This document shows positions 13,175 through 58,935 of a DNA stretch of 64,000 bases, piece by piece. Positions within the stretch are counted from its first letter, which is position 1. The number at the start of each line of letters is the position of its first letter. The notes under the pieces were generated by a model. It did no database searches. It was not told the DNA's origin and was given only the letters and a program-made list of their open reading frames with translations. The DNA comes from Azolla caroliniana. Taxonomy: Eukaryota > Plantae > Polypodiophyta. The stretch is from NCBI GenBank assembly GCA_043228905.1, contig JBHGNT010000027.1:248001-312000 (forward strand), in the 5' to 3' direction. The position numbers were made by a program, and so were the translations under genes.

Positions 13175-13972
13175 TCATAAGCCCCCCCACCAATAGATAG
13201 GGACAGATGGAAATGACCGAACCACGTCCACAGAATGCCGGTACCGAGCAGCTGCTTCGAAGCCGAAGTGATGCGAAGGACTAAAATGACCTATATATTA
13301 ACAAATACCGCGTATCGTCGAGAGAATGGTCCCTGTAGTAACGTAGGACCCATAAGACCCGATGGCTAAGAGGAAAGTAAAACCATAAATACCGTCGGAA
13401 ATGATGAAGAGTGCTTCGTAATATTCCATTCCCTAAAACCCGGTGGGAACTGGAGCCAGCCGAACGATAGCTACTAAAGCGTGAACCGCTTATTATTTTA
13501 AACCTGCGAGTATGGCATGATGAGCCCAAGTCACGGCAGCTCCAGAGGAAAGGAGAATAAGGGTATTTAGAAAAGGGATTCCCCAGGGATTTAAAACCTC
13601 AACTCCTTTGGGGGGCCGAATAGCTCCGATCTCTACCGCGAGTGCCAAAGATAAATAAAAGAAAGCCCAAAAAAAGGCTAGAAGAGACATAACCTCCGAG
13701 ACGATAAACAAGAGAAAACCGTAGCGAAGCCCTAATTATACCACTTTGGTATGACGTCCTTCGTAAGTAAATTCACATGTAACATCGCGCCGCCATACAA
13801 ACATGGTGTATAAGATCAAGCTTAGGCCTAAAGTGAGGAGTGTTCCGTCTCCCGCGAATGAATGCATATACATAACAGCACCGATGGTGCTTGCTAAGGC
13901 TCCGAGTAACCCCAGGAGAGACCATGGACTTGAATCCACCGGATGATAGGGATGCTCTTAGGAGACACTCGT
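13175..13972 (-). CDS. cox3: cytochrome c oxidase subunit 3
   Basis: 798 nt; ACG start MSVS(Q)EHPYH; [21 protein letters not shown]; ends IYWWGGL*. Confidence 0.95.
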
Positions 13973-14929
13973 GTTATTTATTTAATGAATTCACACGAAA
14001 CGGTTTGTACATGAAAGAGTCTTGGCTACTATAATCAATGTAAGGGAGATGAATCCTATTGCAAATACAATCGGAATGAAGAAATCCTAAAATCCAATAA
14101 TCAGTTCCACAACCGAAGAGACTTCTAGATCTTTCAGGATTTCTAGGCCACCCGAAAGATCGGGTAGTGTATTCTACGACAGATTGAGGAGCACCTGCGG
14201 GAACAACTCTTCGTTGTTATTTTAAAGAGTTGCGATGTCCTCGTGCAATTCGGTCTATAATCTTTCTAAGCTGTTTATGACTATGGGCATGTCTTATCCA
14301 ATCTGTTTCTTTTCCTCGGTGCTTTATACCTAGGGCAGTCTCCTGCATTCATGGCAGTTCCTATGGTTGCAAAAACAACAAGGAGTCGGTTCCCGTATAT
14401 ACCCGGCTTTTCTTGTATGCTTTCGGCAAGCAAAAAAAACGCTAGCGGGCCTACCACGCTTCGCGCCTGCGTCTTTGCCAGACAGTATTTGCCAGTAGTG
14501 CCATCCCACCCGACCTGAGGATTTAGTTTGTCCCTTGCTAAAATATCTTTGAAGAACTTGTACTGATTTTCCAGGTCGGTCCTCGCGAGCGGATATGGGC
14601 CCTAGAGGATGGTGTAGAAACTCTCTGCCCGTAAGTCGTGCCTGAAAGCGGTTCATCCGGGTGAAGCCGGCGGCGAGGAATTGACTGGTGCTGCGTTCAC
14701 TGCTTGCTCGAAGGCCCGTATCCGCGCAGGCAGTAAGCAACAGATTGGTTCGTAACAAAAACAGCTTAGAAAAGAAAAAGAATAAAGTTATTTCCTATTA
14801 AACTAGTGATTGTAAAGAAAAAAATCCTTCACAACGCCAAGGTATTTTAGCAAGACACTACATAAGACTTTCGCCCTGGATGATATATGGGTTCTCATGA
14901 GAAAGAATGGTCGGTTTCCTTTTAATGAA

Positions 14930-33847: not shown

Positions 33848-34964
33848 CTAATTTCTGCGTTTCCTCACTATTGCTCAAAATCCACATTTGGTGGGCTTTC
33901 CCCAAAGTAACACCAAAAGTCTACCTCCTTTCGTGCGTCCTTCGCCTCCTCCGTAAGAATAATCAACCAGATTCATAACAACACCTCAAACAATGGGGCG
34001 TCTGCCTAACCACCGGCTTTGCCCTGCTTTGCCAAGCTTACGTATGCCATGGTCGAGATTAGACACTATACCGATAGTAGCTCAGCATCAGAAATCTATA
34101 GGTTTGTGAACACCTAAGAGTGACCGCGCAATACATTATGTATTCTCTTTCTCAATTGTTTTAGCCTTGACCCCTGCAGCTCAAGCTGACCCTGCGCCTT
34201 AACCTGGCTTCCATTCGGTATTATGTACCCATGCGCCCCTAGCTATATGGGCTGATGGTATGCGATTTCCCACCATTTAAAAATACGGATCAAGTACATA
34301 TTTTTTATCGCTATAAGGGTCGGCGTAGTCTCCTCCAGGGCGTAGCCAGGAACCACTCTAACGGCTTCCCCACGGGACCTTCTCTTCTAACCACTTTCAG
34401 CCTTCATTCACTGTGTTGAACGAGGCTGAAGGTTTAGACCAATCATAATTCATCGCCATCCTGCCTGCTTCCAATTAATAACTAGCTAATATATGGGTGT
34501 TAGCCTAAGCCGCACCATTACTGCTGGGGCTTGGCTCCCGAACCGTGCATGAGCTATAGGCCTCACACGGCTCTTCCTAAGAACTTAAATCCTCACTGGC
34601 TCTGCAATCCCTGATCAGAGAGCCTAAGCATTCAGTCGAGGCCTTGGGTTCTTCCGGGAATAATACGCTAGAATTCCCGCCCGTTCTGCCCACATCTCCA
34701 GCCATTCGTGGCTAAGGTCTTAAGTCTTCGAGTCAGCCTATTCTTTTTGAAGAATCCTGCTGCACTCACGGGCATACAGCCTGGCGGGCCTTCCGTTTCC
34801 GGAGCTTCATGGGCGTTGCCCCGTTCCTCAATCAGATGTTTGGATGTGAGCTATACTCCGCGGGAAGCTCCACGAGCGTATGGCCTTGCCAATTGACCCC
34901 TTTTCTCGTATGACTGGGAACGCTGCTCAGTGACAACCTCTCGATCGTCGCCGCCTTGGCCTCT

Positions 34965-43395: not shown

Positions 43396-45847
<2,452 letters not shown>

Positions 45848-45894
45848 TCCCTTTCTCTTCCGTCGAATCCCTTTCCTCGGCACTTTATACCCAG

Positions 45895-45920
45895 GGCAGT
45901 CTCCTGCATTCATGGCAGTT
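45895..45920 (-). promoter_or_regulatory. conserved 5' leader motif upstream of atp1 (longer copy at 50459-50509)
   Basis: AACTGCCATGAATGCAGGAGAC, 73 nt before the ACG. Confidence 0.55.
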
Positions 45921-46494
45921 CCTAGCAAGAAAGAGATGGGAAAGGGAAGTAACCTCACGACGAGGTGAACCATGTCATTGATATAGAGGGGAGGGATCGG
46001 ACCTTCCCCCAGTGTTGGTTTGCATTATAAAGAAAGTAAGTTTTGACAGAATAGACTGGGTGAATGAAGCGCTAAAGCCGTGTATCCGTAGCTATGCAGA
46101 GACGGAGAGAAATAGATATATACAACTGAAAGGTGAGGGACTACGCGGAGGGAGGGCATCCACATAGCTCTAAATCATAGGATCAAATTCCAGAGTGAGC
46201 CCCGCAGTGCAACTACCTTTCGCGGAGCCGACTCTTTCGATCGATTGGCAAAAAAAAATGGATATTTGTCGTATGGAGAAATTGGATGAACGAATAGACG
46301 AGTAAGGTATTAACTAAACTGCAATTATTCTAATTTGAGTCGACTTTTTCCATTCCATCTCCCCGCTTCGCTGCTCTATTCGGGTTTATTCCTTCGCCTT
46401 GCTCGAGCCAAGCCTTCCATGACCTGCTGGGCTGTAGGACCAATCCAAACCTTCTGACGTTGGTGAGTAGAGACAAATAGCTCTATGGTGGTAT

Positions 46495-47721: not shown

Positions 47722-47747
47722 TTCCGTTCTCGATATTCATGGCAGTT
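47722..47747 (-). promoter_or_regulatory. conserved 5' leader motif upstream of rpl6
   Basis: AACTGCCATGAATATCGAGAACGGAA, 57 nt before the ACG. Confidence 0.55.
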
Positions 47748-48505: not shown

Positions 48506-50529
48506 TGCAGAATTGCGTCTTACGGTCACGCGAAATTGACTAGAGAAACAGTCTGAATTACTCCTGTGCGGTTCCTCCGGGATGAACCGGCGGGCGCGTG
48601 AAAAGTGGCGATTTGATTGATTCCCGCCCGAACCAACCGCGATACAATCATGGCCATAGACAACGCCAAGCAGTTGCAGCTCCTCAACGGTTGAAAGGAT
48701 ACGAAGCGATCAGCTAGCGTTCGTACTTCGAGAATACAAAGCAAAGCCTCGATTACCACAGCTGCAATAAGCGAAGAGAATACGATACGATCAGCACGAA
48801 GCGGGGATTCCCAATCTCAGTGAACATCGGTACCAACTATGCCTACAGCGGCAGCGTAGCAAACCTTTGGGTTCGGGACTGGTTGCAGCAAGTACCATAG
48901 GGACTGATTGCAGCAGGTACCGGACTAGTGCTTCGGGACCGATCTAGGACCACAGGGATTGGATTCCGTAGGGATAGCTTCATATCCTCCTTGCCGTATA
49001 GATATCACCTAGCGAACTCCAGGGACTGATCGAACCCACCGGTACCTACGGGTTATCATTCTCGAAGTTGTTTTCTCTGCAAGAATAGGCCGCAGCCTAT
49101 GCTATCTGTACGGCTACTTCTCTGCCGGCCTTTGATCAGAAGCAAGTGAAAGAGACCGGCCATTCTATAACCGAAATTCTTTTCTGCTGCACTGGTTCAT
49201 CGGGCCGCCTCGACTAACGGCAGCATGAAGGCCGTTTATCCGCCAAAAAAGTGGTGCCGTGGCGAAGTCAATAAAACAGCGCAATGAGTGAGATTGCCCG
49301 TTATCCGCCTCACAGACAGCGGAAAGGCCTTCACCTGCGCTAATAAAACTTAGCAGCAAGCAAGTTCTTCCGCATCCGCAAGAAGGGGGCAAGCAAGCAA
49401 GCAAGCAAGCAAGCAATTTGCGCAGCTAGGTTGGGCGGTTCTCTGTCTGCGTAGAGGGCATAATCCGTGTTTGGCTATCGACTCAAATTACAAGTGGTGA
49501 CGGCTAAACTGTACAGTCATGCCGTAAATCACTATCCTTCACCGTTTCCCTGGCTGGAACGAAAGTTTATAGAAAGAAAGCCAAAATTAATTAATATTGG
49601 AGTAGCCATGGTTGATTGCAATGAGAGTGATTATACGCGACCTGGAGTTGAGTTCGAACATGTATGCAATAAGGTGCTAAAGTACTTGGTTGGCTTGAAG
49701 ATAAGTATATCGTAGAACTTGTTAACAATCCATTGGGCTACTTTAGAGAAAGTGAATTTATTTAGGAGGAGGCGAAGGACGCACGAAAGGAGGTAGACTT
49801 TTGGTGTTACTTTAGGGAAAGCCCATCAGTTCGGTTCCTAATAAACATTCACTCGTTACGGGATTCCGGGCGTCAAGGTGTGGATTTTACTTCATTAAAA
49901 GGAAACCGACCATTCTTTCTCATGAGAACCCATATATCATCCAGGGCGAAAGTCTTATGTAGTGTCTTGCTAAAATACCTTGGCGTTGTGAAGGATTTTT
50001 TTCTTTACAATCACTAGTTTAATAGGAAATAACTTTATTCTTTTTCTTTTCTAAGCTGTTTTTGTTACGAACCAATCTGTTGCTTACTGCCTGCGCGGAT
50101 ACGGGCCTTCGAGCAAGCAGTGAACGCAGCACCAGTCAATTCCTCGCCGCCGGCTTCACCCGGATGAACCGCTTTCAGGCACGACTTACGGGCAGAGAGT
50201 TTCTACACCATCCTCTAGGGCCCATATCCGCTCGCGAGGACCGACCTGGAAAATCAGTACAAGTTCTTCAAAGATATTTTAGCAAGGGACAAACTAAATC
50301 CTCAGGTCGGGTGGGATGGCACTACTGGCAAATACTGTCTGGCAAAGACGCAGGCGCGAAGCGTGGTAGGCCCGCTAGCGTTTTTTTTGCTTGCCGAAAG
50401 CATACAAGAAAAGCCGGGTATATACGGGAACCGACTCCTTGTTGTTTTTGCAACCATAGGAACTGCCATGAATGCAGGAGACTGCCCTAGGTATAAAGCA
50501 CCGAGGAAAAGAAACAGATTGGATAAGAC

Positions 50530-50847
50530 ATGCCCATAGTCATAAACAGCTTAGAAAGATTATAGACCGAATTGCACGAGGACATCGCAACTCTTTAAAA
50601 TAACAACGAAGAGTTGTTCCCGCAGGTGCTCCTCAATCTGTCGTAGAATACACTACCCGATCTTTCGGGTGGCCTAGAAATCCTGAAAGATCTAGAAGTC
50701 TCTTCGGTTGTGGAACTGATTATTGGATTTTAGGATTTCTTCATTCCGATTGTATTTGCAATAGGATTCATCTCCCTTACATTGATTATAGTAGCCAAGA
50801 CTCTTTCATGTACAAACCGTTTCGTGTGAATTCATTAAATAAATAAC
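50530..50847 (+). CDS. putative editing-dependent ORF (106 codons) in frame with cox3; mirror at 13973-14290 (-)
   Basis: ATG lies 69 nt after an atp1-type leader; amphipathic N-part and one hydrophobic helix; six stop codons would need U-to-C editing. Confidence 0.35.
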
Positions 50848-51645
50848 ACGAGTGTCTCCTAAGAGCATCCCTATCATCCGGTGGATTCAAGTCCATGGTC
50901 TCTCCTGGGGTTACTCGGAGCCTTAGCAAGCACCATCGGTGCTGTTATGTATATGCATTCATTCGCGGGAGACGGAACACTCCTCACTTTAGGCCTAAGC
51001 TTGATCTTATACACCATGTTTGTATGGCGGCGCGATGTTACATGTGAATTTACTTACGAAGGACGTCATACCAAAGTGGTATAATTAGGGCTTCGCTACG
51101 GTTTTCTCTTGTTTATCGTCTCGGAGGTTATGTCTCTTCTAGCCTTTTTTTGGGCTTTCTTTTATTTATCTTTGGCACTCGCGGTAGAGATCGGAGCTAT
51201 TCGGCCCCCCAAAGGAGTTGAGGTTTTAAATCCCTGGGGAATCCCTTTTCTAAATACCCTTATTCTCCTTTCCTCTGGAGCTGCCGTGACTTGGGCTCAT
51301 CATGCCATACTCGCAGGTTTAAAATAATAAGCGGTTCACGCTTTAGTAGCTATCGTTCGGCTGGCTCCAGTTCCCACCGGGTTTTAGGGAATGGAATATT
51401 ACGAAGCACTCTTCATCATTTCCGACGGTATTTATGGTTTTACTTTCCTCTTAGCCATCGGGTCTTATGGGTCCTACGTTACTACAGGGACCATTCTCTC
51501 GACGATACGCGGTATTTGTTAATATATAGGTCATTTTAGTCCTTCGCATCACTTCGGCTTCGAAGCAGCTGCTCGGTACCGGCATTCTGTGGACGTGGTT
51601 CGGTCATTTCCATCTGTCCCTATCTATTGGTGGGGGGGCTTATGA
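50848..51645 (+). CDS. cox3: cytochrome c oxidase subunit 3 (IR copy)
   Basis: Mirror of 13175-13972. Confidence 0.95.
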
Positions 51646-53874: not shown

Positions 53875-54754
53875 CAATTTGGAGTGAAATCATACCATAA
53901 CTCGAAACGCCTTCCGTCATAGCTAAATACGGGGAGGAGATGCCAGCATGACGGGAAGAGCCGTGTGAGGCCTATAGCTCATGCACGGTTCGGGAGCCAA
54001 GCCCCAGCAGTAATGGTGCGGCTTAGGTTAACTGTATAATTCTAGTCCCACTTTACTACGTGAAGGCGCTCTATAATATTCAGTGAAACCATTATAATAC
54101 AGGGACAAAAGTCATGATGGGGACAGAGGTTTAATCAAACTGTTACACCCGCAGAATATGATCTTGGTGAATACAGGACTGAAAACTCCTGTAATCCTTT
54201 TAAAACATGAAGTGACAGCAAGAGCGCCAATCACCAAGTAAGCAAAGTTTAATTCTGTTGGGATCGAAGATTCGAATCTGGAAAAAGTGGAAGAGCTTCG
54301 TGAACCAAAAATTATTTTGCCAGAACCACGTAAACCGGAAATTATTTTGTCAAAACCATTGAACAAGAAAATAGTTCGGATTGAACTAACCAAGATTTGG
54401 CGTGACCGCGACAAGGTCAAAGGGTTGATTTTCAATTTAATGAAGGGTGGGTATGCCGCAGTTACTGCAGGGTTCGTGGCTTTCCTTTTCAGGAGTCCCT
54501 TTCGCAAAAATGAGAGTGAGAGGTTCCACAAAAAGAAGAAATTTTACAAAAGTAGAAAATTTAGGTTCCACAAGAATAAAAGCAGAAGTGGGAAATTTGG
54601 AAACAAAGGTCTAAAGTTTCGCAGAAGCAGAAATGAGACATTCTGCAGAAGTAGGACATCCAGAATTCTGAACACGAACCCAATAAAGCGTAATATTGCG
54701 GTAAAAGAAGAGATTCGTGCTGCGCTAGTTTCAGAAAAGAAAAAGCACCATTGA
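53212..54754 (+). CDS. rps1: ribosomal protein S1 (IR copy); exons 53212-53236, 54033-54754
   Basis: Mirror of 10066-11608. Confidence 0.88.
53237..54032 (+). other. group II intron rps1i25 (IR copy)
   Basis: GTGTG...GGTTAAC with domain V at ~53958-53991. Confidence 0.92.
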
Positions 54755-57500: not shown

Positions 57501-58935
57501 GGAAACCAACCTATGGGTTCTTTCATCAATTATTGGAGCTTGCTTGAAATAAGCACGATAGTTCATTCTTCACTGATTGATGGGCTATAGTCCAACGTGA
57601 TTTGATTTGGCATATGAGTGAAAGACAACCGCTTCTTCCGCTTCCGCTTCCGCTTCCGCTTCCGCTTCCGCTTCCGCATGATGAAAACCGCTTCTTTTCT
57701 TCGGCCGGCTTCTTCCGGAAATGGGTAAATCTCCCCGCTTCATCCGCGGAAGCAGGATTTGAACCGTAGACCAATCGCGGATGAAGCGGTTAACAGCGCG
57801 CGCTGAGCCACCAACAAAAAAAATGTACGGTTAGTATCATATACATTCTTTGACTCTTGTTACTTGAGCCGCCTCTGAATTTGCAAAACGTTAAGCCGAC
57901 ATTTCCTAAACTTTACGTACACCCTAACTCTTATTATAGGAAGAAGCGGCAGCGATAGCAATCCTATTTTTATAGAGCCCCTGACCTACATTTTGTTTGG
58001 TGACATGTTGGAGGATTCTATACGCTCTAAAGGATACAGAGACGTGATAGCGAAGGGGAGAGCACAAGGTTTGGTGGTTATAGGACTTACCTTAGACGAG
58101 ACAGGAGCACCGTTGAAGAGAGATATGAGATCTTCTCTTGTGTTGCAGATGATGGAGATGGACCCCGCCCGCCCTGGGAGGAGCCGACCAACTCAATTTC
58201 TTGATATTTGCAAGGGAAACATTTCTCATAATCTCGGAGGGGAAAGGGGGCGGACATTTGCTCTCGGGGGAAGACCCGCTCCGATAGAGAATAAGGGAAT
58301 TAATCCCCTAAAGCAACCAACTAGGTAAAGTTCAGCTACTGCCAGCTGAATTATTCTCTAAAGATGACCAAACCAAATATGCCTTAGTGCTTTTTTTTAT
58401 TTGGACAATATCAGCAATTTCATTGCATTCTTCTTTTCTTTTTTGTATTTTGTGGTAATATCGATATTCATTTATGTATGCGACGGACAATTGCTTGCTG
58501 TCGGGGGAAGACCCGCTCCGATAGAGAATAAGGCAAGGTTGCTCGCCTAAAGCAACCAACTTTCGTTGCTCTAATTTAGTTTAGCGCAGAAGGTTAGGTT
58601 GATACAACTAAATTTCGGGGGCGGACCCTGCCCCGAAGTATTATAGGATCGAAAATGACAAGAACAGAAGAAAAGTTTTTACGGAAAAGAACGGTAACAG
58701 CTCCGCGTCGTTCTCTCGAAGAATCGCCATGATGAATCCTCGTGCAATTCATTCTGTAAACGAACTAAGTTTATGATAATGTCTTCGTCAAACTGCCTGC
58801 CTGCCTGCCTGCCTGCCTGCTGTAATCTTTCCAATTTGTTCTGTATTCTTTCCAGTTCGTTCTGTAAACTTTTTGATAATGTCCATGTTTTATCTAATCT
58901 GTTTCGTGAGATTCCCTTCTTTTCTTGTATTTATA

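Follow-up and report, generated by a model that had tools for sequence, protein, structure and literature searches.

Results

The cox3 gene in the mitochondrial DNA of the fern Azolla caroliniana is preceded by a 106-codon in-frame extension that contains six stop codons in the DNA and is likely translated as an N-terminal leader, gated by RNA editing, that supplies the start codon of both Cox3 and Cox1. We found this extension in a stretch of 64,000 nucleotides (GenBank assembly GCA_043228905.1, contig JBHGNT010000027.1, positions 248,001 to 312,000 of the forward strand), called the window below and numbered from its first letter. All six in-frame stops are changed from T to C in runs X8 and X15, on overlapping contigs; the same leader runs in frame into cox1 elsewhere; and relatives preserve the frame. 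The plant mitochondrial DNA of the window contains microsatellite runs and an inverted repeat of 8381 nt; the features at issue are as follows.

50457..50509, forward strand: 53-nt leader common to atp1, identical at 50 of 53 positions to the DNA upstream of atp1 (45924-45872, reverse strand)
50530..50847, forward strand: N-terminal extension of 106 codons, opened by ATG 50530, the sole in-frame ATG upstream of Met34 of Cox3
50563, 50596, 50644 and 50731 (TAG or TAA), 50827 (TGA) and 50836 (TAA), forward strand: in-frame stops of the extension, read from the sequence
50848..51645, forward strand: cox3 core, from ACG 50848 (in frame with the extension), with an internal ATG at 50947
13175..14363, reverse strand: second, identical set of leader, extension (14290-13973) and cox3, located in the opposite arm of the inverted repeat

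A leader in frame with cox3

The first-pass annotation, made from the letters of the window, had described a copy of the atp1 leader followed at nearly the atp1 spacing by a 106-codon frame with six stops that runs from ATG 50530 into the cox3 ACG and recurs in both repeat arms, and the sequence bears this description out. The distance from the start of the leader to the start codon is 73 nt at the extension and 77 nt at atp1. Because the Cox3 matches in Pfam (COX3) and PDB begin at frame residues 110-113, ACG 50848 corresponds to the usual Cox3 start position. The annotation's remark that Gln is encoded mainly by TAA or TAG also holds (five of six Gln codons in the extension and six of six in cox3), as does its caveat that random DNA gives as many stops: shuffled sequences contain 6.6 per 106 codons and six are seen. 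With stops at chance level the DNA alone proves nothing, and it is the RNA and the comparative data that make the case. An out-of-frame ATG at 50468, inside the cox3-side leader, opens 23 codons that end at TAG 50537 and so overlap the main start at 50530. RNA contigs of X8 and X15 begin near 50459-50463; since the edge of the repeat lies there too, we do not read this place as a transcript 5' end.

RNA editing removes every stop in the frame

The comparison of RNA with DNA drew on seven of the 22 runs listed (X3, X5, X7, X8, X15, X19 and X20), each as assembled contigs, which give the majority letter at a site. X8 is recorded as RNA, and X15 comes from another study and another organism; X19, X20 and the metagenome loci served as DNA-like controls. 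In the counts below the four runs are X5, X7, X8 and X15, and P0002 and P0003 are database proteins homologous to the extension.

50563, forward strand: U-to-C, TAG to Gln12, in three of four runs (X7 without coverage); Gln in P0002 and P0003, CAG in a degenerate paralogue
50596, forward strand: U-to-C, TAA to Gln23, in three of four runs (X7 contig unedited); Gln in P0002 and P0003
50644, forward strand: U-to-C, TAG to Gln39, in four of four runs; Gln in P0002 and P0003
50717, forward strand: U-to-C, Leu63 to Pro, in four of four runs and X3; beyond the sites of the first-pass annotation; in P0002 a Pro follows the same motif
50731, forward strand: U-to-C, TAG to Gln68, in four of four runs and X3
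50809, forward strand: U-to-C, Cys94 to Arg, in X15 and X3 record 28
50827, forward strand: U-to-C, TGA to Arg100, in two of four runs (X8, X15); unedited contigs in X5 and X7
50836, forward strand: U-to-C, TAA to Gln103, in two of four runs (X8, X15); Gln in P0002

The first-pass annotation had proposed looking in RNA for U-to-C at the six stops, and all six changes are present in X8 and X15; X5 has four of them (three with both letters present) and X7 two. Eight of the 99 T's of the frame change, and they fall on all six in-frame stops but on just one of the 14 stop triplets that are out of frame (P = 2.5e-8 if drawn at random). The frame also has one silent C-to-U change, at 50583. Published cox3 edits are seen in the same runs, and the spectrum of changes in X8 is 18 T-to-C, seven C-to-T and one other. 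The DNA-like controls keep T: an X19 contig covering 50459-50826 has no differences, X20 has none, and the four 5' stops are kept in all six metagenome loci that cover the whole frame. Since the six edits are seen and the frame is kept in relatives, the description of the extension as an editing-encrypted open reading frame (ORF) was right.

The same leader stands ahead of cox1

Loose ends of contigs at 50827 in X7, X3, X19 and X20, with the same branch visible in partly aligned records of X5 and X8, pointed to a second continuation of the frame. A scan of DNA with a pattern for the frame gave ten loci, five running into cox3 and five into cox1; six cover the whole frame and four only its 3' part. 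At three of them (L002, L006 and L009) codon 99 is joined in frame to cox1, and the leader is intact, without any difference from the window as far as 50827, the last base that the cox1 copy has in common; in the cox1 copy the codon there is TAA.

50364..50827, forward strand: stretch of at least 464 nt that recurs without change upstream of cox1 in L009, whose contig begins at 50364

Read in the frame of ATG 50530, this second continuation encodes Cox1 (Pfam COX1, E 1.2e-5 on the unedited sequence), and residues 6-130 of PDB 7jro_a match frame residues 101-225 with an E of 1.5e-41. Between codon 1 and codon 125 the cox1 frame has no ATG, and its start candidates there are GTG 99 and two ACG codons within the conserved part. 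Codons 95-99 occupy the place of the first Cox1 residues, which suggests that the cassette arose at cox1 and was then copied to cox3. An out-of-frame AUG (50808-50810), offset by one base from the usual cox1 start position, is destroyed by the edit at 50809; it may be a displaced ancestral cox1 start. The cox1 gene was not found within the 64-kb window. Independent DNA assemblies and runs each show both junctions again, the one with cox3 and the one with cox1.

L003-L005 and X19 records 13-15 hold decayed pieces of these two junctions, within unrelated and mostly AT-richer flanks. These are probably nuclear copies; L003-L005 carry frameshifts or new changes.

The ACG at the usual cox3 start position is unedited in the edited contigs

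In X8 position 50849 is absent from the complete list of seven C-to-T places, so that ACG 50848 is unedited there. In X15 the C-to-T places between 50400 and 50960 are two, 50583 and 50879, and the changes on its junction contig number exactly eight, each of which is accounted for. Record 28 of X3 is divergent and could be a retro-copy or come from another species; it is in the edited state at ten editing places, and it reads ACA instead of ACG at 50848, which makes an AUG at that codon impossible by editing. The extension may carry the start that is used: it has the sole upstream ATG, and the ACG is unedited in the contigs of two studies. Partial editing of the ACG or initiation at ACG or GUG are possible alternatives.

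Published editing tables also bear on the start. In Table S5 of PMC12548569 the window bases correspond to the published cox3 sites in ten of ten cases common to Azolla and Salvinia, one of one for Azolla only, none of one for Salvinia only and three of nine for Marsilea only, the pattern of an Azolla-type water fern. All 14 cox3 site numbers tested, among 69 cox3 matches, imply a start at the internal ATG 50947, and nine of nine tested cox1 numbers, among the first 31 of 192 cox1 matches, imply an internal Met. The table has no cox3eU2 row, and among the matches listed no cox1eU2 row, while atp1eU2 is given at 86-98%; the available main text does not name cox1 or cox3. We infer that the cox1 and cox3 gene models in that work are truncated. 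For Haplopteris ensiformis, constant site offsets in the available supplement of PMC10027690 place the start of cox3 47 codons, and that of cox1 about 13 codons, ahead of where it usually lies, and no start-creating edit appears in 30 of 31 cox3 rows or among the matches listed for cox1 (30 of 144). These offsets suggest that extended N-termini may be more widespread in ferns. In the same supplement, two positions that precede the annotated Haplopteris cox1 start by 121 and 104 nt have C-to-U edits of 90% and 85%. Such values are high if the region is untranslated, and a longer frame may be hidden there.

The frame is kept in relatives

The extension is present in five coded organisms among the seven runs. 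In organisms C and G part of it is missing, and in organism B four bases are swapped at 50827-50830 without a gap (as also in L010), which replaces the TGA by sense codons in the DNA.

50577..50681, forward strand: 35-codon in-frame deletion in organisms C and G, seen as a 105-nt joint in X3 and X20

The frame survives every indel that was seen in a copy of mitochondrial type. X3 record 28 has 15 changes outside the editing places, ten of them silent against an expected share of 0.34 (P 0.009); within the extension alone seven of 12 are silent (P 0.06), and the five replacements all keep or create hydrophobic residues.

P0002 came from a search for proteins of near length (one of six candidates) and P0003 from a profile search of 1.84 billion representatives; a repetitive protein of 934 residues from the profile search (P0004) was rejected as a low-complexity match. 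P0002 has 167 residues and ends a few codons into Cox3, and P0003 has 156 and ends at the cox1 junction. Over aligned columns, identity to the extension is 67% for P0002 and 71% for P0003; between the two proteins it is 78%, and both have an insertion of 55 residues relative to it. Gln stands at the stop positions 12, 23 and 39 in both and at 103 in P0002, that is at four of the six stops; position 68 is not alignable in the homologues and position 100 is Trp in P0002. The inserted part (about residues 51-107) is well conserved between the two proteins, contains several Cys and His and has better-predicted helices at 61-78 and 86-112. A scan of loci with peptide patterns found none among 598 stretches, both patterns holding a Gln that is a stop in this DNA.

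An acidic segment, one predicted membrane helix and a basic linker

Residues 1-69 of the extension are acidic, with 12 Asp or Glu and two Lys or Arg, and the linker that follows the membrane helix is basic.

50737..50793, forward strand: predicted single membrane helix, residues 70-88 (Kyte-Doolittle 2.76), with a matching hydrophobic stretch in P0002 and P0003

The same acidic, hydrophobic and basic layout is found in P0002 and P0003. The first-pass annotation had read the frame as a coiled-coil-like segment and one transmembrane helix; the helix stands, and the coiled coil is only loosely supported, the best a/d register being 62% hydrophobic. AlphaFold models have low confidence (pLDDT 57 and 47) and contain helices only, at 2-24 and 71-104 in the pLDDT-57 model. 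Pfam has no family for P0001, P0002, P0003 or the upstream open frame, a PDB profile search gave no match at E 10, and Rfam gave two matches only, far below threshold. Derivation of the membrane helix from a Cox1 helix was not accepted, the alignment scoring 0.7 bits and the partial cox1 loci giving no DNA support. The N-termini of Cox1 and Cox3 lie in the matrix, and membrane proteins follow the positive-inside rule. One additional helix, with its N-terminus placed in the intermembrane space, would fit both proteins.

Discussion

A model for the leader

In the scheme that we consider likely, ribosomes would start at AUG 50530; the frame, opened at all six stops by editing, runs into cox3, and its first 99 codons likewise run into cox1, and the leader would supply the start codon that both genes are without at the usual place. 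The four stop edits that the two transcripts share would then act as one gate on both proteins. The acidic N-terminal part would lie in the intermembrane space, with a single membrane crossing, and the basic linker and the normal N-terminus of Cox1 or Cox3 would lie in the matrix. That 35 codons of the soluble part are dispensable suggests that the main job of the leader is likely to provide the start codon and a membrane anchor. As to its origin, recombination probably set a cassette of leader and ORF before cox1, and a copy with the first cox1 codons (95-99) may then have joined the 5' region of cox3.

We lean somewhat towards removal of the leader after insertion, as happens to the leaders of yeast Cox2 and Atp6. 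Should it be retained, the mature complex IV would have two extra membrane helices encoded in mitochondrial DNA (mtDNA) as well as helical domains in the intermembrane space, and one set of reverse-editing sites would switch on both subunits; we think this outcome unlikely.

Alternatives

Several observations count against translation of the leader into Cox1 and Cox3. X7 is unedited at 50596, and X5 and X7 are unedited at 50827 and 50836. The six edited sites are spread over overlapping records and never occur all on a single one; the four 5' edits are not assignable to cox3 as opposed to cox1 transcripts; and the DNA and RNA compared come from different plants. One minor contig of X19, 10 kb long and frameshifted, carries C at 50731, and one tabulation of X15 omits 50563 and 50644, which the other includes and which the per-contig counts fit. 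Contigs could conceal editing of the ACG if fewer than about half of the reads had it, and start-creating edits peak near 0.5 and 0.9 in the available part of PMC12548569. Unedited ACG can act as a start in plant organelles (PMC10876856, available part), and the cox1 frame has GTG at codon 99. Only open-frame homologues could be found, which biases the argument from indels. Longer or fused forms were absent from the protein collection among 221 and 296 candidates, weak evidence because unedited stops break such proteins.

In one alternative the stretch would be an edited 5' untranslated leader and its edits by-products or relics; Cox3 would be made from the unedited or partly edited ACG, and Cox1 from GUG 99 or a Met further downstream. 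The reported ACG starts (PMC10876856) and the 85-90% edits in the 5' untranslated region of Haplopteris cox1 (PMC10027690), both from the available parts of these sources, are in keeping with this explanation, as are the capacity of partial ACG editing to hide in contigs and the great variation in length of the soluble part. We nevertheless hold it to be improbable: the edits favour in-frame over out-of-frame stops (six of six against one of 14) and restore the residues of homologues, the indels of mitochondrial-type copies all keep the frame, ACA replaces ACG in one lineage, and starts at downstream Met codons would cost the proteins part or all of their first membrane helix.

The first-pass annotation had offered a choice between an N-terminal extension of Cox3 and a separate small membrane protein resembling the chimeric ORFs of cytoplasmic male sterility (CMS); the former is supported. 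The latter is not, because editing leaves no stop before cox3 and the ACG is not AUG in edited contigs. In one version of it, RNA that is only partly edited, with the stop at 50827 or 50836 still in place, would give a stand-alone protein of about 99-102 residues, and the cox genes would start independently. Contigs of X5 and X7 that are edited inside the frame, alongside others unedited at 50827 and 50836, would suit such a protein, as would the database entry of P0003, whose 156 residues were called complete with their end at the cox1 junction, and the resemblance of one membrane helix behind a borrowed atp1 leader to chimeric ORFs. However, the first true cox3 sites are also unedited on the X5 and X7 contigs with unedited 50827 and 50836, so these contigs represent immature RNA or DNA; X8 and X15 remove both junction stops; organism B has sense codons instead of TGA; and the matching codon of Haplopteris cox1 is an 85% stop-to-Gln edit in the available supplement of PMC10027690. 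Such a protein is accordingly given little credence. An artefact of strain differences, nuclear copies or mis-assembly, which the use of different plants for DNA and RNA, the decayed copies (L003-L005, X19 records 13-15) and a repeat that assemblers can join either way might invite, is scarcely credible given the X8 spectrum, the published cox3 edits in the same runs and the recurrence of both junctions in independent DNA assemblies and runs.

Known systems and significance

The comparisons that follow draw on the available parts of the papers cited. Yeast Cox2 and Atp6 have cleavable N-terminal leaders, one is predicted for Arabidopsis Cox2, and plant atp6 extensions are variable (PMC5855863, PMC8847149, PMC5877523, PMC4045975). 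Like these, the fern leader is an in-frame extension encoded in mtDNA that stands ahead of a conserved respiratory membrane protein and would supply its start. It differs in being attached to Cox1 and Cox3, one sequence on two genes, and in being about 100 residues long and acidic, with its own membrane helix and six genomic stops; its cleavage is a prediction. The yeast Cox2 leader is positively charged, whereas the fern extension has 12 Asp or Glu against two Lys or Arg before the helix. Given this difference in charge and the lack of Pfam or PDB kinship, the extension may work like a Cox2 or Atp6 leader and is not placed in that family.

Dead-looking DNA that is opened by U-to-C removal of stops is known from rps11 of Haplopteris (PMC10027690) and mat-Lepto of Salviniales (PMC12548569). 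Those are whole genes, whereas the extension is a new domain-sized leader with no match in Pfam, in PDB or broadly in the databases. With the CMS-type chimeric ORFs of flowering plants it has in common a borrowed atp leader, one membrane helix and repeat recombination beside a respiratory gene, being built from a copy of the atp1 leader and, at its 3' end, the first cox1 codons, with a body that has no known source. Unlike them it has no stop of its own after editing (both junction stops are edited in X8 and X15), is kept in several organisms, with homologues at about 70% identity, rather than in one cytotype, and holds the only upstream AUG of two essential genes. A parallel in another fern may be cox3 and cox1 of H. 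ensiformis (PMC10027690 supplement), whose annotated starts lie upstream of the usual ones with no start-creating edits among the rows listed; there the lengths of the extensions differ between the genes, the likeness rests on site numbers, and the available main-text passages are silent on it.

Few membrane proteins of eukaryotes are as conserved as Cox1 and Cox3. If our interpretation is correct, a common membrane-anchored front end of about 100 residues, masked by six stops, would represent a new way to start, and possibly to co-regulate, two subunits of one complex. It would explain the internal-Met numbering of both genes in the Salviniales editing table, and it suggests that the models of that table miss the first membrane helix, in part in Cox1 and wholly in Cox3. 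The leader would be a test case for stop-removing edits as translation gates, an open question in the available part of PMC12548569, with four sites common to two mRNAs, and it illustrates how young sequence may become indispensable and then gain reverse-editing sites. A literature search found no description of the extension, which may be annotated in GenBank records, subscription papers or bioRxiv supplements; the available parts of 10.1101/2022.12.23.521604, PMC11965612 and PMC13683679 make no mention of it.

Related sequences and other features of the window

The degenerate paralogue and the atp1 leader lie on the reverse strand.

58692..58905, reverse strand: degenerate paralogue (blastn E 0.001 and 0.004) of the first 30 or so codons of the extension, broken up by a 4-nt microsatellite and a frameshift
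45847..45924, reverse strand: atp1 leader, whose ATG 45913 is in frame, 22 codons ahead of ACG 45847

The paralogue (58905-58692) has CAG opposite the TAG at 50563 of the extension. It contains a longer heptad-like run, and no known gene follows within the 1.8 kb read. At atp1, loose ends of RNA contigs in X8, X5 and X15 show UGA at 45865, where the DNA has CGA, and AUG at 45847, where it has ACG. It seems that C-to-U editing there creates the start and at the same time cuts the upstream frame short at 16 codons, a logic opposite to that of the cox leader.

A 10-nt motif ending in ATG occurs six times at four distinct places (17074, 17598, 45919 and 50462, with repeat copies at 47746 and 14358) against 0.12 expected, each time ahead of a long frame; it is possibly a shared element of 5' processing or initiation. 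P0002 and P0003 start with Met-Asn, as the motif would encode. Downstream of 17598, in a different frame, there is a weak match to an S4 domain (E 0.005).

Just upstream of the leader, the 137 nt at 50282-50418 have no Rfam match; in each of the runs X5, X7, X8 and X15 they recur unchanged within a longer contig that comes from elsewhere. No Pfam match was found in positions 1-2200, which differ from the remaining window in being of low complexity, with a GC content of 0.35, runs of Asn and Asp and several short ORFs, and which are perhaps foreign or mis-joined DNA. Loci L001 and L008 leave the repeat arm at a 79-nt inverted repeat (53954-54032 and 34499-34577) and continue from 34577 downward, whereas L007 is colinear with the window; these are likely to be recombination isoforms.

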